A stretch of DNA of 64,000 bases from Mobula hypostoma (taxonomy: Eukaryota): assembly GCF_963921235.1 (NCBI RefSeq), contig NC_086107.1, positions 111,540,001 to 111,604,000 on the forward strand, in the 5' to 3' direction. Position 1 is the stretch's first letter. The number at the start of each line of letters is the position of its first letter. The notes below the pieces were generated by a model. It saw nothing but the letters and a program-made list of their open reading frames with translations. It was not told the DNA's origin and made no database searches. Below, piece by piece: positions 5,851 through 62,100 of this stretch. The position numbers and the translations under genes were made by a program.

Positions 5851-7357
5851 AAGACCATAGACCATAAGATATAGGAGCAGAAGTAGGCCATTCAGCCCAT
5901 CAAGTCTGCTCTGCCATTCAATCATGGGCTGATCCTATTCTTCCAGTCATCCCCACTCCCCTGCCTTCTCCCCATACCCTTTGATACCCTGGCTAATCAA
6001 GAACCTATCTATCTCTGCCTTAAATACACCCAATGATGGCCTCCACAGCTGCTTGTGGCAACAAATTCCACAAATTTACCACCCTCTGACTAAAGTAATT
6101 TCTCCGTATCTTAGCTCTAAATGGACGTCCTTCAATCCTGAAGTCATGCCCTCTTGTCCTAGAATCCCCTACCATGGGAAATAACTTTGCCATTATCTAA
6201 TCTGTTCAGGCCTTTTAACATTCAGAATGTTTCTATGAGATCTCCCTTCATTCTCCTGTACTCCAGGGAATACAGCCCAAGAGCTGCCAGACGTTCCTCA
6301 TAACGTAATCTTTTCATTCCTGGAATCATTCTCGTGAATCTTCTCTGAACCCTCTCCAATGTCGGTATATCCTTTCCAAAATAAGGAGCCTAAAACTGCA
6401 CACAATACTTCAAGTGTGGTCTTACGAGTTCCTTATAGAGCCTCAACATCCCTGCTCTTATATTCTATACCTCTCGAAATGAATGCCAACATTGTATTCA
6501 CCTTCTTCACCACCAACTCAATCTGGAGGTTAACCTTTAGGGTATTCTGCACAAGGACTCCCAAGTCCCTTTGCATCTCTGCATTTTGAATTCTCTCCCC
6601 ATCTAAATAATAGTCTGCCCATTTATTTCTTCCACCAACGTGCATGACCATACACTTTCCAACATTGTACTTCATTTGCCACTTCTTTGCCCATTCCCCT
6701 AAACTATCTAAGTCTCTCTGCAGTCTCTCTGTTTCCTCAACACTACCCACTCCTCCACCTATCTTTGTATCATCAGAAAATTTAGCCATAAATCCTTTAA
6801 TACAGTAGTCCAAATCATTGACATACATCGTAAACAACAACAATCCCAACACCAGCCCCTGTGGAACTCCACTGGTAACCAACAGCCAGCCAGAATAGGA
6901 TCCCTTTATTCCCGTTCTCTGTTTTCTGCCGATCAGCCAATGCTCCACCCACGCTAATAATTTCCCTGTAATTCCATGGGCTTTGATCTTGCTAAGCAGC
7001 CTTATGTGTGGCACCTTGTCAAAGGCCTTCTGAAAATCTAAGTACACCATGTCTACTGCATCTCCTTTGTCTACCCTGCTTGTAATTTCCTCAAAGAATT
7101 GCAGTAGGTTAGTCAGGCAGGAATTTCCTTTCAGGAAACCATGCTGGCTTTGGCCTATCTTGTCATATGCCTCTAGGTACTCCATAATCTCATCCCCAAC
7201 AATCGATTCCAACAACTTCCCAACCACTGATGTCAAGCCAGCAGGACTATAGTTTCCTTTCTGCTGCCTCCCACCCTTCTTAAATAGCAGAGTAACATTT
7301 GCAATATTCCAGTCATCCGGTAAAATGCCAGAATCTATCGATTCCTGAAAGATCATC
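5851..7357 (-). mobile_element. CR1-clade LINE, 3' portion (RT pseudogene plus tail)
   Basis: ORF 6433-7359 has CR1 RT motifs (QHGFLKG, YLDFQKAFDKVPH, SGVPQG, KFSDDTK); frameshifted C-terminus; short-repeat 3' tail at 5851. Confidence 0.95.
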
Positions 7358-8465
7358 ATTCATCAAATTAATTTAGTCAAATTAATTTCTCCAATTCCAG
7401 TCTTCGTACTAATATTAATTTCTTTGTGCACCCCATTTATTCTGAGCCTGTCTGTAGTCCACTTCGATTTCTAGCAGGTTTACTGTGTCTTCTTCCATGA
7501 AAAGAAACAGTAAATAAAATATTTATTTAATATCACTGCTTTTTCCTTATTTCTCAATATAATTTCTCCTTTCACATTAACTAGCTTTTTTTTTCATTTC
7601 TACATACAATCAGTTTTTTTTGGTTTTTCAGTAACTTATTCTTGTATTTTACTTTCTCTTTCCTCATTAATGCCTTGCCCTCCTTTTCTGAATTCTGAAA
7701 TCTTCCCATTCCTCAGGCTTACTGTACCTTTTGGCAACTTCAGAGAACCATTTTCTATATTCTTATACTGCCTTTAACTTCACTGACAACAATAGCTAGG
7801 CCATTTATCCTGCTGGGATTTCTTGCCTTAAACGGATACATACTACTTGCAAACTATGTAATAGTTCTTCAAAAGCTGGACATTGTTTACAGTTATACTT
7901 TGTAATGTAGTATCTCACAAATGCTTTATCCCTCCACAATTTGCTTGATTAACCCTATCTCATTACTTAACATTAGATCTAAGATAGCATGCTACCTCAT
8001 TGGTTGGAAAATGAAGGCCGATCTAGAAAACAAGTTTGCCATATTATATAAAAACGTAACAACTGGAATTCTGCGGATGCTGGAAATTCAAGCAACACAC
8101 ATCAAAGTTGCCGGCGAACGCAACTACATCTACATCTCATGTGCTCAGTATTATTTATTTATTTATGGTATTTTCACATTGGCTGTCTGTCTTTGTATGT
8201 AGTTTTTCATTGATTATATTGTATTCCTTTGTTTTACTGTGAATGCCCACAAGAAAAGGAATCTCCGGGTAGTATGTGGTGACATATACATACTTTGATC
8301 ATAAACTTACTTTGAACTTTGGAAGCAACAAGTTGATGCCTTGTCCTTGATTTCCGAAGAACCTTTGGATCGCAAAAGCAGCAGGATCCAATGGGTAGAT
8401 TAATTGGTCACATGGATGTAATGGGGGGAGGGCCGCGGACTCATTGGACTGGATGGCCCTGTTAG

Positions 8466-13604: not shown

Positions 13605-14010
13605 GCTCCTCCAAGAGGACCACAGGGCCCTTCATGGCATGCCTCAATGACCCGGAGAGCTATGTTGCTGGAGTCAGGGTTTTACGCTTTGGCTCCTGGT
13701 AGGGTCACCCATGCCAAACAGGTCAAAGAGTAGAGACCAGTCTAAGAACAGTCCACTGGCCCCCCAGGTTCAAGGGTTCAGCTCAGGGCTTACAACCCTG
13801 ACTAGTCACACAAAATTGTTACAGAAACAGCAATGAGGAATCCTACATCTGAGTGCGACAGTACACCCGAGCCTCCACCCGGGACTTGCATGACTGACAG
13901 CAGTGAAAACTGAGAGGAAGCTACTGACATGATGAAGGAAGCCGTGAACACCACCAGAGATGGAGGACATTCATTGCTGCCCTAAACGCTAGTGGTGTAG
14001 TGGGTAAAAG
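13605..14010 (+). mobile_element. Bipartite RTE (Rex3/Expander-like) non-autonomous element; copies at 38714-39137 (-, TSD tagcagtt) and ~56835-57130 (+)
   Basis: 5' block cctcaatgacccggagagctatgtt...ggtagggtcacccatgccaaacaggtc resembles the Rex3/Expander 5'UTR, fused to an RTE 3'-end-like agagatggaggacattcattgctgccctaaacgc; three homologous copies in the window. Confidence 0.7.
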
Positions 14011-17137: not shown

Positions 17138-17470
17138 CAGTGGTATGTAAAAGTTTGGGCACCCCTGGTCAAAGTTTCTGTTACTGTGAATAGTTAAGTG
17201 AGTAGAAGATGAACTGATCTCCAAAAGTCATAAAGTGAAAGATGAAACATTCTTTTCGATATTTTAAGCAAGATTAGTGTATTATTTTTGTTCTGTACAA
17301 TTTTAGAGTGAAAAAAGGAAAGGAGCACCATGCAAAAGTTTGGGCACCCCGAGAGATTTGAGCTCTCAGATAACTTTTACCAAGGTCTCAGACCTTAATT
17401 AGCTTGTTAGGGCTACGGCTTGTTCACAGTCATCGTTAGGAAAGGCCAGGTGATGCAAATTTCAAAGCTT

Positions 17471-17478
17471 TATAAATA
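17471..17478 (+). promoter_or_regulatory. TATA box of the Tc1 transposase promoter
   Basis: tataaata located 46 nt upstream of the transposase ATG. Confidence 0.5.
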
Positions 17479-17516
17479 CCCTGACTCCTCAAACCTTGTC
17501 CCAACAATCAGCAGCC

Positions 17517-18537
17517 ATGGGCTCCTCTAAGCAGCTGCCTAGCACTCTGAAAGTTAAAATAAATGATTCCCACAAAGCAGGAGAAGGCTATAAGAAGATA
17601 GCAAAGCATTTTCAAGTAGCTGGTTCCTCAGTTCGTAATGTAATTAAGAAATGGCAGTTAACAGGAACGGTGGAGGTCAAGTTGAGGTCTAGAAGACCAA
17701 GAAAACTTTCCAAGAGAACTGCTCGTAGGATTGCTAGAAAGGCAAATCAAAACCCCTGTTTGACTGCAAAAGACATTCAGGAAGATTTAGCAGACTCTGG
17801 AGTGGTGGTGCACTGTTCTACTGTGCAGCGACACCTGCACAAATATGACCTTCATGGAAGAGTCATCAGAAGAAAACCTTTCCTGCGTCCTCCCCACAAA
17901 ATTCAGTGTCAGAAGTTTGCAAAGGAACATCTAATCAAGCCTGATGCATTTTGGAAACAAGTCCTGTGGACTGATGAAGTTAAAATAGAACTTTCTGGCC
18001 ATAATGAGCAAAGGTATGTTTGGAGAAAAAAGGATGCAGAATTTCATGAAAAGAACACCTCTCCAACTGTTAAGCATGGGGGTGGATCGATCATGCTTTG
18101 GGCTTGTGTTGCAGCCAGTGACACAGGGAGTATTTCACTGGTAGAGGGAAGAATGAATTCAATTAGATACTAGCAAATTCTGGAAGCAAACATCACACCA
18201 TCTGTAAAAAAGCTGAAGGTGAAAAGAGGATGGCTTCTACAACAGGATAATGATCCTAAACACACCTCAAAATCCACAATGGACTACCTCAAGGTGCAAG
18301 CTGAAGGTTTTGCCATGGCCCTCACAGTCCCCAGACCTAAACATCATCAAAAATCTGTGGATAGACCTCAAAAGAACAGTGCATGCAAGTCAGCCCAAGA
18401 ATCTCACAGAACTAGAAGCCTTTTGCAAGGAAGAATGGGCAAAAATCCCCTAAACAAGAATCGAAAGACTCTTAGCTGGCTACAGAAAGCATTTACAAGC
18501 TGTGATACTTGCCAAAGGGGGTGTTACTAAGTACCGA
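17517..18537 (+). pseudogene. Tc1 DD34E transposase pseudogene
   Basis: ATG 17517; N-terminal HTH region, [33 protein letters not shown](E>K)N, GGVTKY. Stop at 18171, frameshift ~18290, stop at 18451. After repairing the frameshift the D-to-E spacing is 34. Confidence 0.95.
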
Positions 18538-23719: not shown

Positions 23720-26700
23720 GTTTAAACTAGTTTGGCAGGAGGATGGCAACCAGAGTGACGTGGCTGAGGATGGGGCAGTTGGTACCAGATGCGATGTGTA
23801 GTGAGACTGTGAGGAAGAATAGGCAGATGATAGGGCAAAATTGCAGTCGGGGGGATGAGTTTAAATGTAGCAGTGGGGCAAACCTCAAAAAGTGGATGAA
23901 TACAGGACTGAAGGTGTTATATTTGAATGCACACAGTATACAGAATAAGGTAGATGATCATGTAGCACAGTCAGAGATTGGCAGGTATGACGCTGTGGGC
24001 ATCTCTGAGTTGTGGCTGAAAGAAGATCATAGTTGGGAGCTTAACATCCAAGGGTACACATGGAATCGAAAGGACAGGCAGATAGGCGGAAGGAATGGAG
24101 TGGCTCGGTTGGTGAAAAAATGAAATCAAATCCTTAGAAAGAGGTGACATAGGATCAGAAGATGTAGAATCCTTGTGCATAGAGTTATGAAACTGCAAGG
24201 GTAAAAAGACCCAGATGGGAGTTACATACAAGCCTCCGAACAGTAGCCAAGATGACGGCTACAAATTACAATGGAGATAGAAAATGCACGTCAAAAGGGC
24301 AACCTTATGATAGTTGTGGGGGATATCAATATGCAGGTAGATTGGGAACATTAGGTTGGTGCTGAATCCCAAGAGAGAGAATGTGTAGAATGCCTGTGAG
24401 ATGGCTTTTTACAGCAGCTTGTGGTTGAGCCCAGCAGGAGAAAGGCGATTCTGGATTGGGTGCTCCGCAATGAACTAGATTTGATTAGGGAGCTTAAGGC
24501 TTAGGAACCCTTAGAAGGCAGTGACCATAATATGATAGATTTCACCCTCCAGCTTGAGAGGGAGCGGCAAAAGTCAGATGTATCAGTATTACAGTGGGTA
24601 AAGGGAATTATAGACATGTGAGAGAGGAGCTGGCCAAAGTTGCTTGGAGGGGAACTCAAGAAGAGATCATGGCAGAACAACAGTGGCTGGAGTTTCGAGG
24701 GAAAGTTGGAAGGAACAATAGACAATAGACAATAAGTGCGGGAGTAGGCCATTTGGCCCTTCGAGCCAGCACCACCATTCACTGTGATCATAGCTGATCA
24801 TCCACAACCAGTATCCAGTTCCTGCCTTATCCCCATAACCTTTGATTCCGCTATCTTTAAGAGCTCTATCCATCTCTTTCTTGAAAGCATCCAGAGACTT
24901 GGCCTCCACAGCCTTTTGGGGCAGAGCATTCCATATATCCACCACTCTCTGGGTGAAAAAGTTTTTCCTCAACTCCATTCTAAATGGCCTACCCCTTATT
25001 CTTAAACTGTGGCCTCTGGTTCTGGACTCACCCATCAGCGGGAACATGCTTCCTGCCTCCAGCGTGTCCAATCCCTTAATAATCTTACATGTTTCAATAA
25101 AATCCCCTCTCAGCCTTCTAAATTCCAGAGTACACAAGCCCAGTCACTCCAATCTTTCAACATATGACAGTCCCGCCATCCCGGGAATTAACCTTGTGAA
25201 CCTACGCTGCACTCCCTCAATAGCAAGAATGTCCTTCCTCAAATTTGGAGACCAAAACTGCACACAGTACTCCAGGTGTGGTCTCACCAGGGCCCTGTAC
25301 AGCTGCAGAAGGACCTCTGCTCTTATACTCAGTTCCCCTTGTTATGAAGGCCAGCATGCCATTAGATTTCTTCACTGCCTGCTGTACTTGCATGCTTGCT
25401 TTCAGTGACTGATGTACAAGAACACCTAGATCTCGTTGTACTTCCCCTTTTCCTAACTTGACTCCATTTAGATAATAATCTGCCTTCCTATTCTTACCAC
25501 CAAAGTGGATAACCTCACATTTATCCACATTAAACTGCATCTGCCATGCATCTGCCCACTCACCCAGCCTGTCCAAGTCACCCTGCATTCTCATAACATC
25601 CTCCTCACATTTCACATTTCCACCCAGCTTTGTGTCATCGGCAAATTTGCTCATGTTACTTTTAATTCCCTCATCTAAATCATTAATATATATTGTTATA
25701 AGATAGACAAATCCAAAGAAGAAAAAGTATTTTAAAGACAGGATGACACAACCGTGACTGACAAGGGAAGTCAAAAACAACATAAAAGCCAAAGAGGGAG
25801 TATATAATACAGCAACGAATAGTGGGAAGTTGGAGGACTCGGAAGCTTTTAAAAACCAACAGAAGGCAACTAAAAAGCCATAAAGAGGGAAAAGATGAAG
25901 GTAAGCTAGCCAACAATATCAAAGAGGATTGTTTTTCAGTTATATAAAGTGCAAAAGAGAGGTGAGAGTGGATATCGAACTGCTGGGAAAAATGCTAGAG
26001 AGGTAGTAATGGGGGACAAGGAAATGGTGGACAAATAAAATAATTATTTTGCATCTGTCTTCACTGGAAAATACTAACAGTATGCATGAAATTCAAAAGT
26101 GTCAGGGAGCAGAAGTGAGTTCAATTGCTATTACTAGGGAGAAGGTGCTTGGGAAGCTGAAAGATCTGAAGATAAACAAATCACCTGAACCAAATGGTTT
26201 ACACCACAGGGTTCCAAAAGAGGTAGCTGAAGGAATTGTGGAGGCATTGGAAATGATCTTTCAAGAATCAATGGATTCTCACTTTGTTCCAGGGGACTGG
26301 AAAATATCAAATGTCACTCCACTCTTTAAGAAGGGAGGGAGGCAGAAGAATGGAAATCATAGGCCAATTAATCTGACCTCAGTGGTTAGGAAGATGTTGG
26401 AATCGATTGTTAAGGGTGAAGTCTGGGGGTACTTGATGGAAAAGTTAAAATTGGCCAAAGTCAGTAAGGTTTCCTTAAGGGAAAATCTTGCATGATGAAT
26501 TTGTAGAAATCCTTTGAGGAAATAACAAGCGGGATAGATACAGGAGAATCAGTGGATGTTGTGTACTTGGATTTTCAAAAGGCCTTTGACAAGATGCTTA
26601 GCAAGATAAGAGCCCATGGTATTACAGGAAAGTTATTAACATGGATAAAGCATTGGCTGATTGGCAGGAATAAATGGAGCCTTTTCTGGTTGGATGTCAC

Positions 26701-27712
26701 TGACTAGTGGTGTTCCACAGGGGTGTATGTTGGGACCAATTCTTTTTACATTGTTTGTCAATAATTTGCATGACAGAATTGATGACTTTGTGGCCAAGTT
26801 TGCAGATGGTATGACGAAAGGTGGAGCGACAGGTGGTGCTGAGGAAGCAGAGGGGCTGGAGAAGGTCTTAGACAGATTAGGAGAATGGGCAAAGCAGAGG
26901 CAGATGGAATACAGGGTCATGCACTTTGGTAGAAGCAACGAAAGTGGAGACTATTTTCTAAACAGGCAGAAAGTTCAAAATTCCGAGATGCAAAGCGGCT
27001 TGGGAGTTCTCGTGTATGACCCCCTAAAGGTTAATTTGCAGGTTGAGTCAGTGGTGAGGAAGGCAAGTTCAATGTTAGCATTCATGTCAAGAGGACTAAA
27101 ATATAAAGGCAAGGATATAATGTTCAGGCTTTATAAGGCACTGGTGAACATTTCTGGGCCCTTTATATGAGAAAGGATGTGCTGACATTGGAGAGGGTTC
27201 AAAGGAGGCGCACGAGAGTGATTCCAGGAATTATTGTGTGAGGAGCATTATCGTATGAGAGATAACTCTGGGCCTTTGTTTACTTGAATTTAGAAGCATG
27301 AGGCGGGGGGGCGGGGAGGCGGGGGCAAAATCTCGTTGAAACCTATGGAATGTTGAAAGGCCTTGACAGAGCGGATGTAGAGCGGATGTTTCCTATGGTG
27401 CGATGACTAGGATCAGAGGACACAGTCTCAGAATACAGAGATGTCAATTTAGAATGGAGATGAGGAGGAATTTCTTTAGCTGGGGTGATGAATCTATGGA
27501 ATTCATTGCCATGGGTGGTTGCCGAGGACAGGTCATTGGGTGTATTTATGTCATAAGTTAATAAATTCTTGATTAGTCAGGGCATGAAAGCTTATGGGAG
27601 GAGGGCAGGGGAATGGGATTGAGAGGGAAAATGGATCAGCCATGATGAAATGGTAGTCACGCTCGATGGGCCAAATGGCCTAATTCTGTTCCTACCTCTT
27701 ACGGTCTTATGA
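23720..27712 (+). mobile_element. Long decayed CR1 LINE (APE endonuclease plus RT plus tail)
   Basis: LKVLYLNAHSIQNK...GISELWL (APE), WKISNVTPLFKKG, SGVPQG, KFADG, CR1 3' tail at ~27660-27712; many stops and frameshifts. Confidence 0.92.
24715..25696 (-). mobile_element. Younger CR1 3' fragment nested antisense in the older CR1
   Basis: (acaatag)n tail at 24715; ORFs 25217-25792 and 24667-25137 with IYINDLD, KFADDTK, FFTQRVV. Confidence 0.92.
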
Positions 27713-29056: not shown

Positions 29057-29635
29057 AAGGCCTCCACTGGTCAGGGTCGACCTTGGATGTTGTGTCCTAG
29101 CTGCCTTGGTATGCAAACCTGGGCAGTACAATATGGAGAGCAAGCTGTTGCCCATGTAACAAGCTCCCCCTCTCCACTAATCTGATGAACCCAAAGGAAT
29201 AGCAGAGACTGAACTATAGTTTGGCACCCCCAGCCTTGCAGGAGTCGCCAGTCAGCATTGAACTCAATGTAGGACTGCCTTAGGGACTCCAACTCCAGAT
29301 TTTTTTGTCTGGGTTTACTCCCGGAGTCTTCCCCATGAATGAGTATAGCCGCAAGGCAGCGGAGGTTTGCGATAAGAGTTTTCCTTCTCCTAGATGAGCT
29401 GCCAGCCACAGCTGACAAGCTCCATCTGCCCGAAGTGACTGGTTTTAACGCGCAAGTAAACTCGCACCTTAAGGTTGCTATAGCCGAGAATAGTAATGGG
29501 AATAAGCTCCCAATAGCGTGGGCCTCAAAAACCCTTTGACAACCAAGCCCAGCTCCTGGCCTTCACGTGTAGCTTGGCTACCATGCCTGGTGGAACTGTT
29601 TCTACTTACAGGAGAAACGACAAAGGCAGGTTACT
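29057..29635. mobile_element. RTE-type non-autonomous element with 5' inversion (same family as 31898-32465 and 44087-44669)
   Basis: TSD aacagagaaatgt (29044-29056)/aacagagaaatat (29636-29648); 3' part on the minus strand to ~29465, 5' part on the plus strand ~29467-29635. Confidence 0.8.
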
Positions 29636-29865
29636 AACAGAGAAATATGCTGGTATTAAACCTAAAACCTGCCAAATCAGTGCATACCTCTGCCGAAGGA
29701 GGTTCTCTATTTATGTGGTATGTCGTTGTTACAAGAGCCTCAGGACTTGCACCACCAAGTTCAAGAACAGTTCCTAACCCACAGCCATCAGACTCTTGAA
29801 CAAAAGGGGATAACTACACTCACTTACCCATCCATTGAGATGTTTCCACAACCAGTAATCTCACT

Positions 29866-30340
29866 CACAACACGCTGGAGGAACTCAGCAGGTCGGGCAG
29901 CATCCGTGGAAACGAACAGTCAACGTTTTGGGCTGAGACCCTTCGTCAGGACTGTAGAGGGAAGGGGCAGAGGCCCTATAAAGAAGGTGGGGAGGGAGGT
30001 TGGGAAGGAGAAGGCTGGTAGGTTCCAGGTGAAAAACCAGTAAGGGGAAAGATAAAGGGGTGGGGGAGGGGAGGCAGGGAGGTGATAGGCAGGAAAGGTG
30101 AAGAAGGAATAGGGGAAAACACAATGGGTGGTAGAAGGAGGCGGAACCATGAGGGAGGTGGTAGGCAGCTGGGGGAGGGGCAGAGTGAAACTGGGATAGG
30201 GGAAGGGAGGAGGAGGGAATTACCGGAAGTTGGAGAATTTTATGTTCATACCAAGGGGCTGGAGACTACCTAGACAGTATATGAGATGTTGCTCCTCCAA
30301 CCTGAGTTTATCCTCATCATGGCAGGAGAGGAGGCCATGT
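29866..30340 (-). mobile_element. Penelope-like element 3'/pLTR fragment with mutated hammerhead motif (29917-29954)
   Basis: Reverse-complement homolog of 45937-46275; encodes the end of the GIY-YIG ORF (LEEQHLIYCLGSLQPLGMN). Confidence 0.8.
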
Positions 30341-31344
30341 ATGGAAATAATGATCTCACTTTAAGGACTCTTTATCTCATGTTCTCATTATTTATTGCTA
30401 TTTATTTATATTTGTATTTGCGCAGTTTGTTGTCTTCTGCACTCTGGTTGATCTTTCATTTATCCTGTTATAGTTATTATTCTATAGATTTGCTGAGTAA
30501 GCCCACAGGAAAATTAATCTCAGGGTTGTATATGGGGACATACTGTATATATACTTTGATAATAAATTACTTTGAACTTTGAACATTGCAGGAAACTTTA
30601 TTTGTAAAATATTAAACTGGGAGCTTAGAAAAGTTCCTTCCAATCTTGGTGTCTGATACCATAGATATATATACATCATTTATTTTAACTATCTATAATG
30701 ACTCCTTAAGTTTGAAAATGGTGCTGACTGCAAAATTAATGGGAGCCAGATTTCCAGAGGCGTCAGCTAAAATTCCCCGAATTAATCTTTCAAACAGGCT
30801 CTGTGGGATTTTTTTCTCATTACTTTGATATTGATCCAATGTCACATAAAAGTCTATGCAAACACAGTTAGTCATAAAAGATCAGGCTGGTTCAGAGTTG
30901 ATGTGTCGTTTCACAGCCGCAACTTTGCAGTCAAAAACCTCAGGACTTTCCCAGGAAGTGATTGGTCACCTCGCTTTGCCAAGTAGAGAAAATCACCAGC
31001 CCAGCTCTTTGCACTATCACTTGTTCAGCTTGCAGCGCTGGATCCTGATGCTATCGCCATCTAAATGTGCTTCGGAGATTAAGAATGAGGCATCAAACCG
31101 GGGCGCCATGGTGGTGCAATGATATCACAGCTTGGGGTGTCGGAATTTGGAGTTCAATTCCGACGTGATCTGTAAGGAGTCTGTATGTCCTCCCTGTGGA
31201 GTGTGTGGGTTTCCTCTCACAGTCCAAAGACGTATCAATTAATTAGTCATTGTAAATCGTCCCGTGATTAGCTTAGGGGGTTTTGCTGGGCAGTGTGACT
31301 TAAAGGGCCTGAAGGATCTATTCCACACTGTATGTCCAAATAAA

Positions 31345-31840
31345 TAACCATATAACCATGTAACAATTACAGCACAGAAACAAGCCATCTCGGCCCTTCT
31401 AGTCCGTGCCGAACTCTTACTCTCACCTAGTCCCACCGACCTGCACTCAGCCCATAACCCTCCATTCCTTTCCTGTCCATATATCTATCCAATTTTACTT
31501 TAAATGACAACATCGAACCTGCCTCAACCACTTCTGCTGGAAGCTCGTTCCACACAGCCACCACTCTCTGAGTAAAGAAGTTCCCCCCTGTGTTACCCCT
31601 AAACTTTTGCCCCTTAATTCTCAAATCACGTCCTCTTGTGTGAATCTCCCCTACTCTCAATGGAAAAAGCCTATCCACGTCAACTTTATCTATCCCCCTC
31701 ATAATTTTAAATACCTCTATCAAGTCCCCCCTCAACCTTCTACGCTCCAAAGAATAAAGACCTAACTTGTTCGACCTTTCAATAAAGACCTAACTTGTTT
31801 GACCTTTCAATAAAGACTTAACTTGCTCAACCTTTCCAAA
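31345..31840 (-). mobile_element. CR1 3' fragment with triplicated aataaagacctaacttg unit at its 5' junction
   Basis: ORF 31427-31750 ERRRLRGDLIEVFKIM...FFTQRVV; three tandem copies at ~31753-31835. Confidence 0.9.
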
Positions 31841-31897
31841 TAAGCTTGTTGCTTACATATGTTTTTTTCCAGTGTTATAAGGACAAAGAAACTTTAA

Positions 31898-32465
31898 GGT
31901 GCATTAAGGTTGTTATAGCTGGGGGTGGTAATGGGGGTAAGCTCCCAGCACCTATTAAATGCCCCCAATGGCGTGCGCCTCAGATAGTCTCTGGCAACCA
32001 ACCCCAGGTCCTGGCCTTCATGTGGGGCTTAGCTACTGAGCCCGGTGGAACCATTCCTACTGACAGGAGAAGGGGCAAAGACGGGTTACTGGCACCTTCA
32101 AACCAGTCCCTTTGGGCAAATTGGGGCTCATCAGCTGTGGCTGGCTGCTCACCCAAGAGAAGGAAAACTGATCTGAAACCTTCCCGGCCTTGCGGGCTTA
32201 TCAGCTCAGGGGGAAGGCTTCGGGGGTAAACTCCAAGGGGAAAAGTCCGGAGCTGGAGTCCCTTAGGCAGTCCTATGCTCTGTTCGACGCTGACTGGCAA
32301 CTCCTGGTGCCAGCCTCTTTCGGTCTCTGCTGCTGGTTTGGGTTCATCAGATGCGTGGAGAGACGGAGCCTGCTATATGGGTAACAGCTTGCTCTCTATA
32401 TTGTACTGCCCTATCTAGACAGCCAGGCTGTGACGTCCGTGTTCAACCCTGACTGACAGAGTCGT
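31898..32465 (+). mobile_element. RTE-type non-autonomous element carrying a putative HDV-like ribozyme (31898-32068)
   Basis: Colinear with the reverse complement of 44087-44669. P2 TCCTG/CAGGA, P3 GCC/GGT, L3 TTCATGT, P1' GGAACC. Confidence 0.75.
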
Positions 32466-32779: not shown

Positions 32780-33096
32780 TTATAATTAAGGCATCCGTTA
32801 GTCTTGCGAGACCATGGATCTGCGCCTGGAAAGTCTTCACTCTCCAGGACGCAGGCCTGGGCAAGGTTGTATGGAAGTCCGGCAGTTGCCCATGTTGCAA
32901 GTCTACCCTCTCTACGATACCGATGTTGTCCAAGGGAAGGGCAAAGGCCGATACAGCTTGGCACCGGTGTCGTCACAGAGTACTGTGTGGTTAAGTGCCT
33001 TGCTCAAGGACACAACACTCTGCCTCGGCTGGGGCTCGAACTCACGACCTTCAGGTCGCTAGTCGAATGCCTTAACCACTTGGCCACTTGCCCACG
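32780..33096 (-). mobile_element. tRNA-head SINE with CORE-like domain and RTE-type tail
   Basis: Minus strand gtggccaagtggttaaggc (A box), gagttcgagccc (B box), gtgtccttgagcaaggcacttaacc (CORE-like); TSD caagatgaattt (32768-32779)/caagatggattt (33097-33108). Confidence 0.8.
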
Positions 33097-38185: not shown

Positions 38186-39639
38186 TTGGAATGTGAACGG
38201 GCTGAGGAATTAAAATGGGAAGGTGAATTGTCTCAGCCTGAAACATCGACGGTTTATTCCCACCTATAGATGCTGCCTGACCTGCTGAGCTCCTCCAGCA
38301 CATTGTGCGTATCGCTCTAGATTCCCAGCATCCGCAGAATCTCTCGTGTTTATAATTTGGGAAACTGCTCAAGTACTATTTGCAGTTTTGGTGTGCCCAT
38401 CACAGGCAGAACACAGGAAAGGTTAATTGAAAACTAAAGAAACATTGTGCATGTTGCAAATCCAAAAATGAAAGCAGAATATGACAGGAAAACTCAACGG
38501 TGATGGATAGAGAAACGACAACACCATTTTAGGTCGATGGCCCTTCATTAAAATAAGCTTAGAAAGCAGAGCAGGAAACTGTGGGGTGTAAACCGAACAA
38601 GTGGAAGATCTGATAGGTTGCAGAGGTGTACCACGATTTACAGAGTCATCTGTTTTATAGATTAATGAGGGTTAGACACAGAACAAATGGGCACCACAGT
38701 GGGATTAGCAGTTCTGCCTCTTCTCCTTTTGCCCATTACTCTGCTGGCATTTAGGGCAGCAATGAGGGCTCCCCATTTCTGGTGGCGTTCACGGCTTCCT
38801 TCATCATGTCAGTAGCTTCCTCTCAGCTTTCACTACTGTCAGCCACGCAAGTCCCAGGTGGAGGCTCAGGAATACCGCCACACTCAGATGTAGAAGGAGT
38901 TTCCGTAACAGTTGTGTTTGACCAGTTAGCATTGTCAGCCCTGTGCCGAACCCCCAAAACTGGAGGAGCAGTGGACCACTCTTAGTCTGGCCTCTACGCT
39001 TTGACCTGTTTGGCATGGGTGACCCTACCAAGAGCCAAAGCATAAAGCCCTGACTCCAGCCAACATCGCTCTCCGGGTCATTGAGGTACACAAGCCTCCA
39101 AACCCAACAACAAATTTGTGGTCCTCTTGGAGGACAGTAGCAGTTAGCGTGACGCTATTACAGCTTGGGGCGTCAGAGTTCATAGTTCAATCCTGGTGTC
39201 CTCTGTAAGGGGTCTCTGTACGTCCTTCCTGTGGAATGAGCGGGCATCCTTCCACAGTTCAAAGAGATACTGGTTAATAGGTAAATTTTCCCATGATTTG
39301 GTCAGAGTTACTCGGAGATTGCCGGGCGGGACTGGAAGGACCTAGTCCACATTGTATCTCTAAATGAGTAAATTATAAATAAATAAGTAAACACATCAAG
39401 CTGAGAAATCAAGTCAGAGCGACTGCAAGAACTTGAAACCAAAAGGAGATTGTTGGAAATTCCCAGCAGGTCAGGTGGTGTCTGAGGAGAGCGATTATCA
39501 TAGATAATTTGATCTGGGCATATTGGAGACTTTATGACTCAATAACAAACAGGACGATCCCATCTTAGTTTCTTTTTCTGTTTGTATCATAAGCGACTTT
39601 CTGCCTTCAAGCATTTGCATACCTCCCGTCACTTAATCA

Positions 39640-43484: not shown

Positions 43485-44086
43485 CTCAGTAGGTCAGGGA
43501 ACATCTATGGAAAGGAAATAAACAGGCCGAGGCCCTTCATCCGTACTTGAAAGGGAGGAAAACGCCAGAAAAGGAAGACTGGGGGAGGGGGAGGAGTACA
43601 AGCTGGAAGGTGAAGGTTGAGACCGGGTGAGGCGGGGGGAATGAAGTGAGAAGCTGGGAGGTGTTAGGTGGATAAGGTGAGGGGCTGAAGAAGAAGGAAT
43701 CTGATAGGAGAAGAGAGTGGACCATGGGAGGAAGGGTAGGAGGAGAGGCACCAGTGATGATAAGCAGGTGAGGAGAAGAAGGGAGCCAGAATGGGGAAAG
43801 GAAGAGGAGAGAAGGGGGGTGGTTGAGAAATTGCCAGAAGCTGGAGATACTGATGCTCATGCTGTCATTTTGGAGGCTACCCACATGGAATATGAGATGT
43901 TGATCCTCCAACCTGAGAGCGGCCTCATTGTGCCAGTAGAGGATGCCAAGTCGGAATGGGAAAAAAGGGAAAGGAATTGAAATGGTTAGGCCTGATTTAC
44001 AATGGTATCTAAGCAGCAGACACTGTTGACTTTATGAAAGCTGACTGTATGCAGCTCCAGGCCTACTTTAATGCAATTAATTTAAC

Positions 44087-44669
44087 GGAGGCCCTCCATT
44101 GATCAGGGTCGACCATGGGTATTGTGTCCTAGATGCCTTTGTGATACGCAAGCCGGGACAGTACGATATGGAGAGCAAGCTGTTGCCCGTGCAGCAGGCT
44201 CACCCCTCCATGCATCTGATGAATCCAGAGGAACGGCGGAGGTCGATACGGTTTGGCACCAGCGGCATCACGGGATTCGCCAGTCAGTGTCAAACTCAAT
44301 GTAGGGCTGCCTTAGAGACTCCGGCTGGGGATTTTGCCCTCCCTGTGAGTGGGTGTAGCTGCAAGGCAGTGGAGGTTGGAGATCAGAGTTTTCCTTCTCC
44401 TGGATCAGCTACCAACCATGGCTGACCAACCCCATCTGCCCAAGGCGATGGTTTTAAGGTGCCAGTAACCAACCTTTGCCCGTTCTCCTGTCAGTGGAAA
44501 CAGCTCTGCCAGACTTAGTAACTTGACACACGTGAAGGCCAGCAGCTGGACTTAGTTGACAGAGGCTATTTGAGACACACTCCACTGGAGAATTTAAGGG
44601 GTGGTGGGAACTTATCCTCTCTAACCCCTCCCTCCACCTCACCACCAGCTAGAACAACCTTAAGGAACC
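44087..44669 (-). mobile_element. Full-length RTE-type non-autonomous element starting GGTTCC
   Basis: TSD aattaatttaac (44075-44086)/aactaatttaac (44670-44681); homologous to 31898-32465. Confidence 0.82.
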
Positions 44670-45865
44670 AACTAATTTAACTAATTAATTTAAGTGAAAT
44701 TCACTTGCAAATTAAATCTGAGGCAGTAACCAATACCTCATCCTCATCTCTTTCTTTGAAAATCCCCATCACCCTCCCTCTGCAGCCAAAGTCCAGGGTG
44801 CTTTCCTTGCTGATCTCACCATTCCCAATCTAACCACATCATCAGTTGCAAGTGCCTCCTCATTCTCAGTTACTTGAACCTCCCCCACTTTCGTGGATCT
44901 TCTTGACCCGTTCATTACTTTCAACTTCTATCTTAACTCCCTTTGCCCACACACGTGGCCATCGTCATTTCTAGCATGTCATCTGATGGCTTAACTGACA
45001 GGAACTTGGAAGACCAATTCAATGCCCCACAGAACTTGTTCTAGCAACACAAATGTACTTTTCACATAGCCATCTTGGTTTACCATTCCACATGAATTTT
45101 CTGTGACCCCCCTCCTCTGCATTGAAGATTTCTGCAAAATGCCATCTATGCATCTAGCATGGCCTCTTCTGACTTTCTCGAAGCAATCCCCATGATGCCG
45201 GAGAAATTCTTCTCTCAGCTACCATCGTGCAGGAGGTACTGAAGCCTCAAGTCCCACACCACCAGTGGGACTTGGCAGTGTGGAGGAACTGAGAGATCTT
45301 GGGGCAGTGTGGAGGGATTGAGAGATCTTGGGGTCCGTGTCGATAGGACACTCAAAGCTGAAGTGCAGGTTGAGAGTGTTGTTAAGAAGACATATGATGT
45401 GTTGGCATTCATCAACCATGGGATTGGGTTCAAGAGCCGTGAGGTAATGCTACAGCTATATAAGACACTTGGAGTACTGTGTTCAGTTCTGGTCACCTCA
45501 TTACAGGAAGGATGTGGATACTATAGAGAGAGTGCAGAGGAGATTTACAAGGATGTTGCCTGAATTGGAGGGCATACCTTATGAGAATAGGTTGAGTGAA
45601 CTTGGCTTTTTCTCCTTGGAGCAATGGAGGATGAGAGGTGACCTGAGAGAGGTGTATAAGATGATGAGGGGCATTGATCATGTGGATAGCCAGAGGCTTT
45701 TTCCCAGGGCTGAAATGACTAACACGAAGGGGCATAGTTTTAACGTGCTTGGAAATAGAGGATGTCAGGGGCAAGGTTTTCACACGGAGAGTGGTGGGTG
45801 TGTGGAACGCACTGCCAACGGTGTTGGTGGAAGCAGATACAATAGGGGCTTATAAAAGGCATATA

Positions 45866-56155: not shown

Positions 56156-58380
56156 GTTTACGTATAAATTTATATTATATAATTTATATTATATAACTTT
56201 ATAATTTATATAAAGTTGCATTTATGTATAAATGTATAATTTATACATTCTTTGATAATAAATGAACTTGATTCGTGAATGCAGTCTTAATTCTAAGATT
56301 TCAATTCATTTTAGAGTACAAACAAACATACGGATCGTAAGAAAACTAAATAAAGAGCTGAGAAACAATGCTAAGAGGTGTAAGACAAAAGATTAAAGAG
56401 AAGAAACCAAAATGGCACCTCTGAAAAATCTATCACTTTTATAGATAAGATATTCCTTACATTAAGAATGAATTTGTTAATAGGCTACATAATTAAAACA
56501 ATTACATCATGTGGGTAATGTGCTAACACTTAGCCAATGAAAAATGAGAAAGGTGACAAACTGTCAGTTTAATTGTTATACCGCTTTCTGCCAGTGAGTG
56601 TGGAAAGCATATGAGTTTGTTAAGAAGTACAAATCTTATTAAAATGATAAATCTTATTGAATGATAAAGGTGTGGGAGGTATAGGGTGTCCGCAGCAGTC
56701 TATGCAAGGGGATGTACCAGAAAAGCTCACAGGAGACACAATCTTTACAAAACAAGACAAGACTGACTATAATAGTGAGAGAGGGGTCACATGCCTGACT
56801 GCTTAATTCCTTAAAATTGCCACGTAAGTTGATAGCCTCCGAGAGGAACACAACCTTGTTGTACAGTTTAGTGGCTTGTGTGCCTCAGTCACCCTGGCTG
56901 GAGTCAGGGTGACTCTTAGTGGGGTCACCCATGCCAAACAGGTCAAAGGGTAGAGGCCAGACTAAGAGTGGTCTACCATCCTCCAGTTTCAGACGTTCAA
57001 TTCAGGGCTAACAACCCTGACTGGTCAAACAAAACTGTTAAGGAAACAGTGATGAAGAATCCTTTTATATCTGTGTACAACAGTATGGTCAAGGATAGAC
57101 GAAGATGGAGACCAGCAGTGTAATGAGCAGTAAGGAAGCAGGTTGATAAGGTGAAGAAGACTCGTGGAGTATTGGCCTTCATTAGTTGGGGAACTGAGTT
57201 CAAGAGCTGAGAGCTAATGTTGCAGCTCTATAAAACTCTAGTCAGACTATATTTGGAGTCTCTTGAAGGTCCCTAATGGATTTGTCTCTACCACTGCCCC
57301 TTCTGGTCTCTTTGTAAAGAAACTTCTGACATCACCCCCATTATGCTTCCCTGTAATCACCATTAAATTATGCCCTCATGTATTAACCATTACCACCCTG
57401 GGAAAAGGTAGCTGGCTAGTCACTCTAGTTATGCCTCTTACCATCTATGAAGTCATCCCTCAACCTCCTTGCAAGAGTCTGAAAGTATGGAAAGAAACTC
57501 CACTAAATCAAAGGCAGAGTACAAAGTTCTTAGCAGTGTGGAGGAACAGAGAGATCTTGGCGTCCACATCCACAGATCCCTCACAGTTGCCATGCAAGTT
57601 GAGAAGGTGTATGGTGTGCCAGCCTTCGTTAGTTGGGGGATTGAGTTCAAGAGCCAAGAGGTAACGTTGCAGCCCCATAAAACTCTGGTTAGACCACACT
57701 TGGAGTATTGTGTCCAGTTCTGGTCACCTCATTATGGGAAGGATGTGGAACCTTCAGAGAGGGTGCAGAGATTTACCAGGATGCTGCCTGCATTGGAGAG
57801 CGTGTCTTATGAGGATAGATTGAGCGAGCTAGGGTTTTTCAATCTGGTGCGAAGGAAGATGAGAGGTGACTTGATAGAAGTGTATAAAAATTATAAGAGG
57901 CATAAAAGACTGAACAGCCAGAGACTTTTTCCTGGGGTGAAAATGGCAAATACAAGGGGGCATAATATAGGGGTCCTGGGTAATGGGGGTCCTTAAAACC
58001 CTTTTGGTGGTGTCCTCAATGTTGGGGTGGCTAGTGCCCATGATGGAGCTGGCTGAGATAACAGCTTTCTGTACTGCTTTCCAATACTGTGCGGTGGCCA
58101 CTCCGTACCAGATGGCGATGCAACCAGTTAGGATGCTCTCCACGGTACATCTGTAGAAATTTGCTTTGGCAACCTGCCAACTCTCCTCAAACACCTAGTG
58201 GAATATAGCCGTTGTTGTGCCTTCTTTGCAACTGCAGATAGATCTTCAGAGATGTTGACACCCAGGAAGTTGAAAATGCGCACACCTCCCTCACAGTTGA
58301 TGCAGCTGGGAATATTTGGAGGGCAATATCTAAGTCTGTTGGGCAGCATGGTAGTGTAGCGGTTATCATAATCAGTGGTC

Positions 58381-58879: not shown

Positions 58880-60452
58880 AACGTGCAGATTATGGTTCTG
58901 CCCCCTACGGTTCTGAAAGAGGTAGTGTTAGAGATTGTGGTGGCATTAGAAATGACGTTTCAAAAAAAATCATTGCACTCTGGCATGGTGCCAGAGGAGT
59001 GGAAAATTGCAAATGTCACTCCACTCTTTAAGAAAGGAGGAAGGCAGCAGAAAGGAAACTGTAGACCAGTTAGTCTGACCTCAGTGGTTGGGAAGATGTT
59101 AGAGTCAATTGTTAAGGATGGAGTGATGGAGTACTTGGTGACACAGGACAAGGTAGTATGAAGTCAGCATGGTTTCCTTAAGGGAAAATCCTGCCTGATG
59201 AACCTGTTGGAATTTTTTGAGGAGATTACAAGTAGGATAGATAAAGGGGAGGTTGTATATTTGGACTTTCAGAAGGCCTTTGACAAGGTGCCACACATGA
59301 GGCTGTTTACCAAATTAAGAACTCATGGTGTTTCACAGGAAAGTTACTAACATGGTTAGAGCACTGGCTGATTGGTAGGAGGCAGCGAGTGGGAATAAAA
59401 GGATCCTTTTCTGGTTGGCTACCAGTGACTAGTGGTGTTCCACAGGAATCAGTCTTGGGACCACTTCTTTTTATGCTGTATATAAATTATTTAGATAATG
59501 GAATAGACGGCTTTGTTGTCAAGTTTGCAGATGATACAAAGATTGGTGGCGGGGCAGGTACTGTTGAGGAAACAGATAGGATGCAGAAGGATTTAGACAG
59601 ATTAGGAGAATGGGCAAGAAAGTGGCAAATGAAATACAATATTGGGAAATGCATGGTCATGCACTTTGGAAGTATAAATAAGTGTGCTGACTATTTTCTA
59701 AACGGGGAGAAAATCCTAAAATCTGAGATGCAGAGGGGCTTGGGAGTCTTTGAGCAGAACACCCTAAAGGTTAACTTGCAGGTTGAATCAGTGGTGAGGA
59801 AGGCAAATGCCATGTTAGCATTCATTTCAAGAGGTCTAGAATACAAGAGCAAGGATGTGATGCTGAGGCTTTATAAGGCTCTAGTGAGGCCTCACCTTGA
59901 GTATTTTGAACAGTTTTGGGCCCTTCATCTTAGAAAAGATGTGCTGGCATTGGAGAGGGTCCAGAGGAGGTTCACAAGGATGATTCCAGGAATGAAAGGA
60001 TTATCATACGAGAAATGTTTGATGGCTCTGGGTCTGTACTCACTGGAATTCAGAGGGATGAGGGTGGATCTCATTGAATGTTGAAAGGCCTAGACAGAGT
60101 AGATGTGGGAAGAATGTTTCCCATGGTGGGAGAGTCTAGGACAAACGGGCACAACCTCAGGATAGAGGGGCACCCTTTCAAAACAGAGATGCAAAGAAAT
60201 TCCTATAGCCAAAGGGTGGTGAATTTGTGGAATTTGTTGCCACATGCATCTGTGGAGGCCAGGTCGTTGGGTGTATTTAAGGAAGAGATGGATAGGTTCT
60301 TGATTGGAAATGGAATCAAAGGTTACAGGGAGAAGGCTGGGAACTGGGGTTGAGGAAAAGAGAGAAAAAAAGCATCAGCCATGATTGAATGGTGGAGCAG
60401 ACTCGATGGGCCAGATGGCCTGATTCTGCTGCTATGTTTTATGGTCTTATGG
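58880..60452 (+). mobile_element. CR1 LINE 3' 1.6 kb (RT pseudogene)
   Basis: ORFs 58883-59161, 59389-60084, 60078-60353 with CR1 RT motifs; tail tatggtcttatgg. Confidence 0.95.
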
Positions 60453-60910
60453 GTTAGTGAATTGTGGGTGTGCTATGTTGGAGCTAGAAGCATGGCGACT
60501 CTTCCGGGCTGCCTCAGCACACCTTGGGATGTGTTGGTCATTACCACAAAGCAAACACATCCCATTGTTTATTTTGACACACGTGTGACAAATAAAGCCA
60601 ATCTTTCATCTTTAAACCATTGTCAGTTGCACATGAGATGCTGTGCCATTCTCTCAACATCTGCAAGCCAACTACCCTTTTCCACAAGCACAGGAAATTC
60701 TACAGATGCTGGAAATATCGACGGTTTATTCCTCTCCATAGATGCTGCCTGGCCTGCTGAGTTGCTCCAGCATGCTGTGTGTGTCCTTTACCAGACAGAC
60801 CCAGCCTCGGAAAATCCAGGTTCATAATGTAGCAAAGTCCCAAAAAAGTGACCCATTTCTGCTTTCTCTAGTTTCTCCTCTCAGGAAAGGCGGGCAACCA
60901 TAATGGTACA

Positions 60911-60960
<50 letters not shown>

Positions 60961-62100
60961 TTATTTATTTATTGAGATACAATGTAGAATAAGTCCTTCT
61001 GTCCCTTCGAGCCACGCCACTCAGGAATCCCTGATTTAATCCTAGCCTAATCACAGGACAATGTACCAATTAATCTACCAACTGGTACATCTTTGGACTG
61101 TGGGAGGAAACTGGAGCCCCCGGAGGAAACCTAAGCAGTCACGGGGAGAATGTACAAGCTTCTTACAGGCAGAGGCAGAATATCTATACAGTGTATTTAA
61201 GTTAAAAAACTAATGCAAAAAGAGAGGGGAAAAATACTGAGTTCATAGGTTCACTGTCCATAATTTTTATTGTGTTTTATTTTTATGCCACATCATATCC
61301 AGAGTAACAACCATTTTTTTTTCATTTCATTCTCCTTAACACTTATGCACTGTTGAATGACAATAAGCAATCTCAAATCTTGAAGCTTGAATCTTTTCCT
61401 CAAAAATCATGGGTTCATTGTCCATTCAGAAATCTGATGGCAGAGGGGAAGAAGCTGTTCCTGAACTGTAGGGTGCGAGTCTTCAGGCTCTTGTGTCTTG
61501 TCCTTAATGCTAACAATGAGAATAGGGCACGTCATAATTTTCTTACTGTAATTTATAGTTTTTTATCATTATGATTTACAATGTACTGGTGCCACAAAAC
61601 AACAAATTTTACAACACACACCGGTGATATTAAACCTGATTCTGAAAGTCGTTATGCCTTCAGGAAGCCAGCACAGACTTAGTTTATTGTGGGAAAGGTA
61701 ATTTGAAGATCAGGAGATCACACCAGAATTTGTACTTCCTTAGGAGTCTGCAAGGATTTGGCATTACATCAAAAAATTTGACAACCTGTTAAAGATATGT
61801 AGTAGAGATTGTATTGACTAGTTGTATCACAGCCCGGTATGGAAACACCAATGCCTTCGAACAGAAAATCCTACAAAAGGTAGTGGATTTGGCCCAGTAC
61901 ATCATGGATTAAACCCTCCCAACTATTGAGCACATCGAAGTGAAATGCTGCCATGGGAAAGCAGCATCCATCCTCAGAGATCCTCATCACCCAAGCCACG
62001 CTCTCTTTTCACTGCTGCAATCACATAGAAGGTACAAGAGCCTCAGGACTCGCGCCACCAAGTTCAAGAACGGTTACTACCCGTCCAACCATCAAGCTCT

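Follow-up and report, generated by a model that had tools for sequence, protein, structure and literature searches.

How does a dispersed retroposon without a recognisable RNA polymerase III (Pol III) promoter come to begin at the same base in copy after copy? This question is raised by an element of about 590 bp that starts at position 31898 of the stretch of Mobula hypostoma DNA considered here (contig NC_086107.1, 64,000 nucleotides, hereafter the window). On the consensus of this element family a nested double pseudoknot of the hepatitis delta virus (HDV)-like type can be drawn from sequence, with P1 running from the first nucleotide of the element, and the consensus satisfies every sequence constraint of the published HDV-like descriptor. 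In invertebrates and protists, several elements that lack long terminal repeats (non-LTR elements) have their 5′ ends trimmed by HDV-like ribozymes. We lean slightly towards the view that the head of about 170 nt was, in the ancestral or master sequence, a functional self-cleaving ribozyme with a CPEB3-like core and an unusual build, which would have defined the 5′ end.

The initial annotation had placed three copies of the motif at 31898 (plus strand), 29467 (plus) and 44669 (minus). The three stretches are indeed there, are mutually homologous and belong to a single dispersed repeat. A 403-nt query taken from 31898 gave 40 scored matches, the best of 7678 first-look candidates in the 3.48-Gb genome, and apart from the query's own locus these 40 are 80–83% identical to it; the first-look candidates for three queries of the family number 7678, 2709 and 1676. 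Comparison of 30 loci gives the element length and shows that homology sets in at the base that corresponds to 31898 and runs to ...CUCUGACCGACAGAGGCC, followed by a short CTCA-like tail. In 60 copies homology begins at G1, the flanks are unrelated, and the boundary is sharp to nt 1–2. The family, with an identical 5′ boundary and a similar variant profile, is also present in contigs of four public runs that carry four organism labels (X1, X10, X21 and X22, aligned to L048:1451-1750). The variant mix of run X10 differs, for example by a G-to-A change at element nt 151 that makes up 31% of the depth. Exact flanking duplications of at least 8 nt are found in 11 of 39 copy rows, against a chance expectation that we roughly estimate at about 1. 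The family is old and very abundant, and its copies diverge by about 15–20%, in a pattern of neutral decay. The parts of the family within the window are as follows.

31898 to 32463, plus strand: copy 1, decayed, consensus nt 1–586; in blastn, nt 1–584 of the 30-copy consensus align with 31898–32461 at 82.6%.
29467 to 29636, plus strand: 5′ piece of copy 2, consensus nt 5–194, opposite in orientation to the remainder of copy 2 and with an incomplete P1 strand.
29058 to 29459, minus strand: remainder of copy 2, consensus nt 189–588, 87.1% over 402 nt (blastn).
44087 to 44669, minus strand: copy 3, consensus nt 1–590, 78.2% (blastn).
44670 to 44681, minus strand: target-site duplication on the 5′ side of copy 3, 12 nt with 1 mismatch to 44075–44086, abutting G1 directly.
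44075 to 44086, minus strand: 3′ counterpart of this duplication, preceded by a 3-nt tail.

The two pieces of copy 2 lie head-to-head (29058–29636) in a twin-priming-like 5′ inversion, which is a pattern expected from insertion mediated by a long interspersed element (LINE). Together, the dispersed copies, the defined ends, the target-site duplications and a 3′ tail common to other retroposons indicate that the family is a LINE-mobilised, non-autonomous retroposon resembling a short interspersed element (SINE). Each copy in the window is mutated, as had been said. Copy 1 has GGUGCA as its P1 strand, and a C of its L3 has become U; copy 2 is missing nt 1–4; copy 3 keeps an intact GGUUCC (44669–44664), but its P1′ is AGAGCU, its P2 5′ strand is mutated to CUGCUG, and its G-rich tract is expanded. 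Judged by these letters, all three are mutationally inactive relics, and the fold has to be read from the consensus.

The consensus was built as the majority of 30, and then of 60, copies. Both versions have GGTTCC at nt 1–6 and GGAACC at nt 150–155, so that the complementarity on which the initially annotated composite fold depends is borne out. Among 30 copies, the first six positions are G (20), G (18), T (24), T (27), C (22) and C (25). The 60-copy majority further reads CTCCTG at 111–116, GCC at 117–119, TTCACGT at 120–126, GT, the hairpin GGCTTAG-CTA-CTAAGCC at 129–145 and C; its 3′ part is GGC at 147–149, GGAACC, GT, TTCTA, CTGA at 163–166 and CAGGAG at 167–172. Alternation between T and C at nt 149 and between A and G at nt 156 in smaller samples marks decaying CpG sites, and once CpG decay is corrected P3 is a perfect GCC/GGC. 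On copy 1 the parts of the proposed fold are located as follows.

31898 to 31903, plus strand: P1 5′ strand, element nt 1–6, GGUGCA here and GGUUCC in the consensus; the proposed cleavage is 5′ of 31898.
31904 to 32007, plus strand: J1/2 domain of 104 nt, consensus nt 7–110, holding a G-rich tract of variable length.
31908 to 31915 with 31992 to 31999, plus strand: predicted 8-bp closing stem of the J1/2 domain (RNAfold), consensus nt 11–18 with 95–102; 91.1% of cells paired in 60 copies.
32008 to 32013, plus strand: P2 5′ strand, GUCCUG here (5 bp left) and CUCCUG in the consensus; 92.5% of cells paired in 60 copies.
32014 to 32016, plus strand: P3 5′ strand GCC, consensus nt 117–119.
32017 to 32023, plus strand: L3, UUCAUGU here by CpG decay; the consensus UUCACGU fits TYYHCGY.
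32024 to 32043, plus strand: 20-nt insert between L3 and P3′, with an 8-bp hairpin here (32025–32032 with 32036–32043).
32044 to 32046, plus strand: P3 3′ strand, GGU here; the majority and ancestral form is GGC.
32047 to 32052, plus strand: P1 3′ strand GGAACC, consensus nt 150–155.
32053 to 32054, plus strand: J1/4, AU here and GU in the majority; candidate P1.1 with L3 (C122-G156 and U121.U157).
32055 to 32059, plus strand: 5-nt linker in the position of P4, consensus UUCUA.
32060 to 32063, plus strand: J4/2 CUGA (CNRA), where C32060, consensus C163, is the proposed catalytic cytosine.
32064 to 32069, plus strand: P2 3′ strand CAGGAG, consensus nt 167–172.

The motifs that had been reported for copy 1 are thus all present: UCCUG 32009–32013 with CAGGA 32064–32068, GCC with GGU, UUCAUGU, the 8-bp hairpin, GGAACC and C32060-U-G-A. 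The absence of P4 also holds for the consensus, where the 5-nt linker takes its place. The reported L3 of the two other copies is found as TTCACGT at 29562 (copy 2) and 44530 (copy 3). In the consensus the insert consists of GU, a 7-bp hairpin (nt 129–135 with 139–145, loop CUA; 92.9% paired) and C; it is present in 60 of 60 aligned copies, three of which (L003, L026 and L030) have lost a few bases of it. C163 is unchanged in all 60. The C122-G156 pair is CG in 30 of the 60 copies and is a decaying CpG. The minimum free energy fold that RNAfold predicts for the CpG-corrected nt 1–175 includes P1. Three elements of this putative fold go beyond the initial annotation, namely the CPEB3-like P1.1, the CpG-corrected GCC/GGC P3 and the J1/2 domain closed by an 8-bp stem. 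The G-rich tract of the J1/2 domain lies at element nt ~24–30 (31921–31927 in copy 1, about 44646–44620 in copy 3) and varies in length; several of the 60 copies have insertions of up to about 25–30 nt in it, with GGGGT-like repeats.

How well does this head agree with what is known of HDV-like ribozymes? The RNAbob/RNAmotif descriptor used in searches by the Luptak group (PMC4870747, Additional file 1, Figs S11/S36) asks for a P1 of 5–8 bp of the form R...:...Y, a J1/2 of 1–51 nt, a P2 of 6–8 bp, a P3 of 3 bp, L3 as TYYHCG(N)Y, J1/4 as RN, a P4 region of 4–54 nt in the loose form or a 5–6 bp stem in the strict form, and J4/2 as CNRA (PMC4870747). In the consensus, P1 is GGUUCC/GGAACC with 6 Watson–Crick pairs, beginning with G1-C155 at the first base of the element. 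P2 pairs CUCCUG 111–116 with CAGGAG 167–172 and crosses P1, and P3 forms three Watson–Crick pairs between GCC 117–119 and GGC 147–149, placed between P2 and P1′. L3 is UUCACGU, J1/4 is G156-U157, and J4/2 is C163-U-G-A. The linker UUCUA (5 nt) falls within the loose P4 term and outside the stem term.

For counting, the descriptor was relaxed to a J1/2 of up to 130 nt and an insert of up to 25 nt between L3 and P3′. In this form it has 3 matches on both strands of 602,768 bases (the window and 72 loci), all of them inside the family. With P1 anchored at nt 1 it is matched by 1 of 1,000,000 mononucleotide shuffles and unanchored by 7 of 200,000, figures that somewhat overstate the significance, as the relaxations were picked after the sequence had been seen and the locus was pre-selected. 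Looser descriptors of our own were matched by 11 of 20,000 and 2 of 400,000 shuffles, and a stricter one (CNRA plus P1.1, with unlimited G.U pairs) has 52 matches at about 25 distinct sites in the window. The descriptor match is improbable by chance. Independently of these figures, P1 coincides exactly with the family boundary, as established from the 60 copies and the contigs of the four public runs.

The core strands resemble those of the CPEB3 ribozyme. Nucleotides 20–26 of the mouse Cpeb3 ribozyme are UUCACGU, as given by a primer beginning 18 nt from the cleavage site in an excerpt of PMC10919898, and the residues U20, C22, A23 and G25 named in an excerpt of PMC4836649 agree with this. 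The L3 of the family is identical, as the initial annotation had stated for CPEB3. The same excerpt describes P1.1 of CPEB3 as one G-C and one U-U pair and J4/2 as a 4-nt linker containing the catalytic C (PMC4836649); the family has C122-G156 and U121.U157 as candidate P1.1 and a 4-nt J4/2 with C in first place. In contrast, CPEB3 is single-copy and intronic, its J1/2 is short and its P4 is a hairpin, and its P1, P2 and P3 sequences differ from those of the family. There is no match of the family to the Rfam model, and the likeness is one of letters that does not imply common ancestry.

For the definition of 5′ ends there is a direct precedent. According to excerpts of PMC3185411 and PMC3414825, non-LTR elements and non-autonomous elements derived from them can have their 5′ ends defined by HDV-like ribozymes. 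L1Tc/NARTc, R2 with R2 SIDEs, and RTE, as far as described in excerpts of PMC3185411, PMC3383444 and PMC3414825, resemble the present family in the nested double pseudoknot, in a P1 that starts from the first nucleotide, and in occurring on short derivatives as well. By analogy with L1Tc/NARTc, R2 and internally deleted derivatives, a self-cleaving head may serve as 5′-end definer here. The family differs from these systems in its vertebrate host, in the SINE-like element of about 590 bp, in the hairpin between L3 and P3′ and in the absence of P4, and it is known here from sequence alone. P4 is also absent from minimal HDV-like ribozymes, the metagenomic drz and theta ribozymes, according to the part of bioRxiv 10.1101/2023.06.13.544163 that was available; these are compact and microbial or phage-borne, whereas the family has a 104-nt J1/2 and an L3-P3′ hairpin and resides on a retroposon. 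Structured J1/2 domains activate large HDV-like ribozymes, and drz-Agam-2-1 with its P1.2 helix resembles the family in a helix-closed J1/2 insertion that pinches P1 and P2 (both from an excerpt of PMC4908430). Unlike the family, drz-Agam-2-1 keeps a canonical L3/P3 junction and P4.

Where else could the 5′ end come from? ARAGORN detects no tRNA in the window or in the family consensus, and neither a B box nor a tRNA-like fold was found in the consensus. Rfam has no tRNA, 5S or 7SL match inside the element in 16 copies. An A-box-like TAGCC...GGTGG at nt 19–31 stands alone, without a B box, and TTTT occurs nowhere in the 590-nt consensus. A head without a recognisable Pol III promoter suggests that this is not a tRNA-, 5S- or 7SL-derived SINE head. 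An extra G before an element is a cap signature in L1 biology; an extra G at position −1 is not enriched among the copies. A profile of the head, run with nhmmer against 301,384 bases, recovered only more copies of the same family.

The contrast with a neighbouring element is instructive. A young tRNA-derived SINE of about 310 bp lies on the minus strand at 32785–33095 and has clear A and B boxes; its copies in the genome are mostly 92–95% identical (5612 first-look candidates). The tRNA head of a SINE of this type is detected by Rfam (L052:2803-2871, 22.6 bits) in the run that gave no match inside the element studied, whereas the ~590-bp family has a non-tRNA head of about 400 nt. The two share a central domain (family nt 420–535, about 72% similar) and a similar 3′ end, which reads ATCCATGGTC, then a stem-loop, then GCC; a genome search with the 3′ 79 nt gave 40 listed matches. 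Because of this common central domain and 3′ end, the two retroposons probably use one and the same LINE partner. The link to RTE elements put forward initially finds nothing in its favour, the element being SINE-like and sharing its domain and tail with a tRNA-derived SINE.

Further repeats and matches occur in the window. LINE-like reverse-transcriptase fragments at 6433–7359 (minus), 25217–25918 (minus), 26661–27170 (plus) and 59284–60084 (plus) show no link to the ~590-bp family, nor does an open frame for a Tc1/mariner-type transposase with a Sleeping Beauty-like helix-turn-helix at 17454–18173 (plus). A sub-threshold Rfam match to SCARNA7 lies on the minus strand at 60887–61048, with 32.4 bits (gathering score 65) and E = 0.00079. 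Another repeat, with ...GGGTCACCCATGCCAAACAGGTCAAAG..., occurs in three copies (about 13700–13830, 38940–39090 on the minus strand, and 56850–57000); it is descriptor noise without a convincing ribozyme fold.

Several results weigh against a ribozyme in the head. Two terms of the published descriptor are violated: J1/2 has 104 nt instead of 1–51 nt, and L3 does not close P3 directly, as the 20-nt insert separates them in every copy. We know of no active HDV-like example with a 20-nt hairpin between L3 and P3′; our literature search found no precedent for a helix at this place and no report joining HDV-like ribozymes to sharks or to vertebrate SINEs. The loose architecture descriptor has 537 matches in the window, the relaxations were chosen after the fact, and the whole relaxed descriptor is still passed by only 1 of the 60 copies (L058). 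Rfam gives no HDV-like, CPEB3 or hammerhead match in the window, in 29300–32400 or in 14 better-kept copies, whether at the gathering score or at E values up to 10; this failure is expected from the two inserts, and we count it as a failed test all the same. Covariation under the pseudoknot model in 60 copies is 0.107 against 0.108 for shuffled alignments, with 292 of 500 shuffles as high. The plain hairpin model shows no excess over shuffles in the same copies either, and RNAalifold predicts next to no common structure (−1.77 kcal/mol); since the copies decay neutrally, covariation and RNAalifold cannot decide between the folds. After CpG masking, the core diverges by 0.060 and the remainder by 0.078 (rank 66 among 518 windows, p = 0.07), so that the core is no outlier. 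A competing local hairpin pairs L3 with P3′/P1′ (UUC/GAA and CGU/GCG, extending the inserted hairpin), is 90.4% paired and is equally well kept. The stability of the J1/2 domain is ordinary (z = −1.26), and a closing helix of at least 8 bp arises in 229 of 5000 shuffles, which is modestly unlikely. The flanks add a further difficulty. T is the commonest base at −1, in about 20 of 35 copies with intact GG (e.g. at window position 44670 and in L004, L008 and L014), and the flank-letter consensus ends in T-G in three public runs. This T belongs to the target-site duplication in some copies and is extra in others (L008, L041); in some copies additional bases separate the duplication from G1. Neither the −1 T bias nor the extra bases are predicted by a clean cut 5′ of G1.

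Much of this would be accounted for if the likeness were due to chance. The head would then be that of an ordinary structured SINE, in which nt 111–172 form a long hairpin with imperfect pairing and an unrecognised internal promoter sets the 5′ end without any catalysis. The abundance of the loose architecture is in line with this explanation, as are the plain hairpin that is kept as well as the pseudoknot, and the lack of covariation, extra conservation and an Rfam match. The A-box-like motif is at a plausible distance from nt 1, and the consensus has no TTTT. A liberal eye may also have been at work, given that a further family with the same fold and insertion site, claimed initially, is not found in the window: loose and strict descriptors, a search for TTCAYGT and a scan allowing up to two defects returned only low-complexity or isolated matches, two unrelated repeat families among them. 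An insertion site common to two families is thus not supported by these scans of the window. On the other hand, the consensus agrees with all sequence constraints of the descriptor, has its P1 at the first base of the element, a combination reached by one shuffle in a million, and has no counterpart outside the family in the bases searched. Its L3 and candidate P1.1 have the same letters as in CPEB3, and there is no B box, tRNA-like fold or Rfam small-RNA match that would speak for a promoter. We regard a chance look-alike as unlikely, though it is an explanation to be taken seriously.

Alternatively, the head may descend from a genuine HDV-like ribozyme, for instance in the 5′ untranslated region of a LINE, that was inactivated by the insertion between L3 and P3′ and by the loss of P4, after which the family spread with its 5′ end defined otherwise. 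Such a relic agrees with core motifs that are more complete than chance would give, with an insert at a site outside the published descriptor, and with an alternative local hairpin that would trap L3. Against it, all 60 copies with the insert still start at G1, so the mechanism that defines the end worked despite the insert, and no other end-defining signal was found; we consider this history quite improbable. A different register would avoid the insert altogether, with P3 as GCC/GGC (nt 129–131), a 9-nt L3, P1′ UUAGCU at nt 132–137 and P1 AGCYGG at nt 20–25, and thus a cut 19 nt inside the element. It is represented by two descriptor matches in one copy (L006:1520-1700, with a 23-nt P4 region). 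This fold needs T at nt 23, where C is commonest (17 of 30), which leaves a C.A mismatch and two G.U pairs, and its cut would miss the 5′ end of the family. We rejected the register with P1 at nt 20–25 on account of the nt 23 mismatch in most copies and the lack of coincidence with the 5′ end, and hold it to be very improbable indeed. The initial proposal of an HDV-like ribozyme thus stands in so far as the fold can be drawn and the sequence constraints of the descriptor agree, and lacks the backing of covariation and of an Rfam match. Thousands of copies start at one base without another end signal, for which a self-cleaving head is the simplest explanation.

If the head was a ribozyme, the element would be transcribed inside longer host or read-through transcripts, as it has no recognisable Pol III promoter of its own. 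The RNA would fold as a nested double pseudoknot, with P1 (1–6 with 150–155), P2 (111–116 with 167–172), P3 (117–119 with 147–149), P1.1 (C122-G156) and J4/2 (C163-U-G-A). C163 would catalyse scission just 5′ of G1 and release an RNA with a 5′-OH that starts at the first base of the element. The reverse transcriptase of the LINE partner would recognise the 3′ stem-loop and tail, and new insertions would arise by target-primed reverse transcription. The 104-nt J1/2 with its own closing stem may act as a P1.2-like pinch. In structures of the HDV ribozyme, the residues at the end of L3 form a bulge that lies between the G25.U20 pair and P3′. A helix that branches at the exit of L3 could, by analogy, face the solvent or occupy the place of P4. 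The inserted 7-bp hairpin would branch from this bulge-like exit and may replace the stabilising role of P4.

We propose tentatively, and with less assurance than the ribozyme itself, that the family represents a new HDV-like subclass with a helix at the L3 exit and no P4, found as the 5′ head of a SINE without a Pol III promoter in thousands of copies in a vertebrate lineage, and that it is the closest match among retroelements to the active-site strands of CPEB3 (L3, P1.1 and J4/2). Should the fold prove inactive, it would calibrate how closely a non-catalytic sequence can mimic the descriptor. Should the proposal be true, a helix where L3 meets P3′ can stand in for P4 in the HDV fold, which would call for broader descriptors in genome searches, and SINEs can do without a Pol III promoter by using read-through transcription and self-cleavage. 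Such a subclass would also hint that CPEB3-type ribozymes descend from ribozymes of vertebrate retroposons, and a retroelement with core letters identical to those of CPEB3 would make the origin of the mammalian ribozyme testable.

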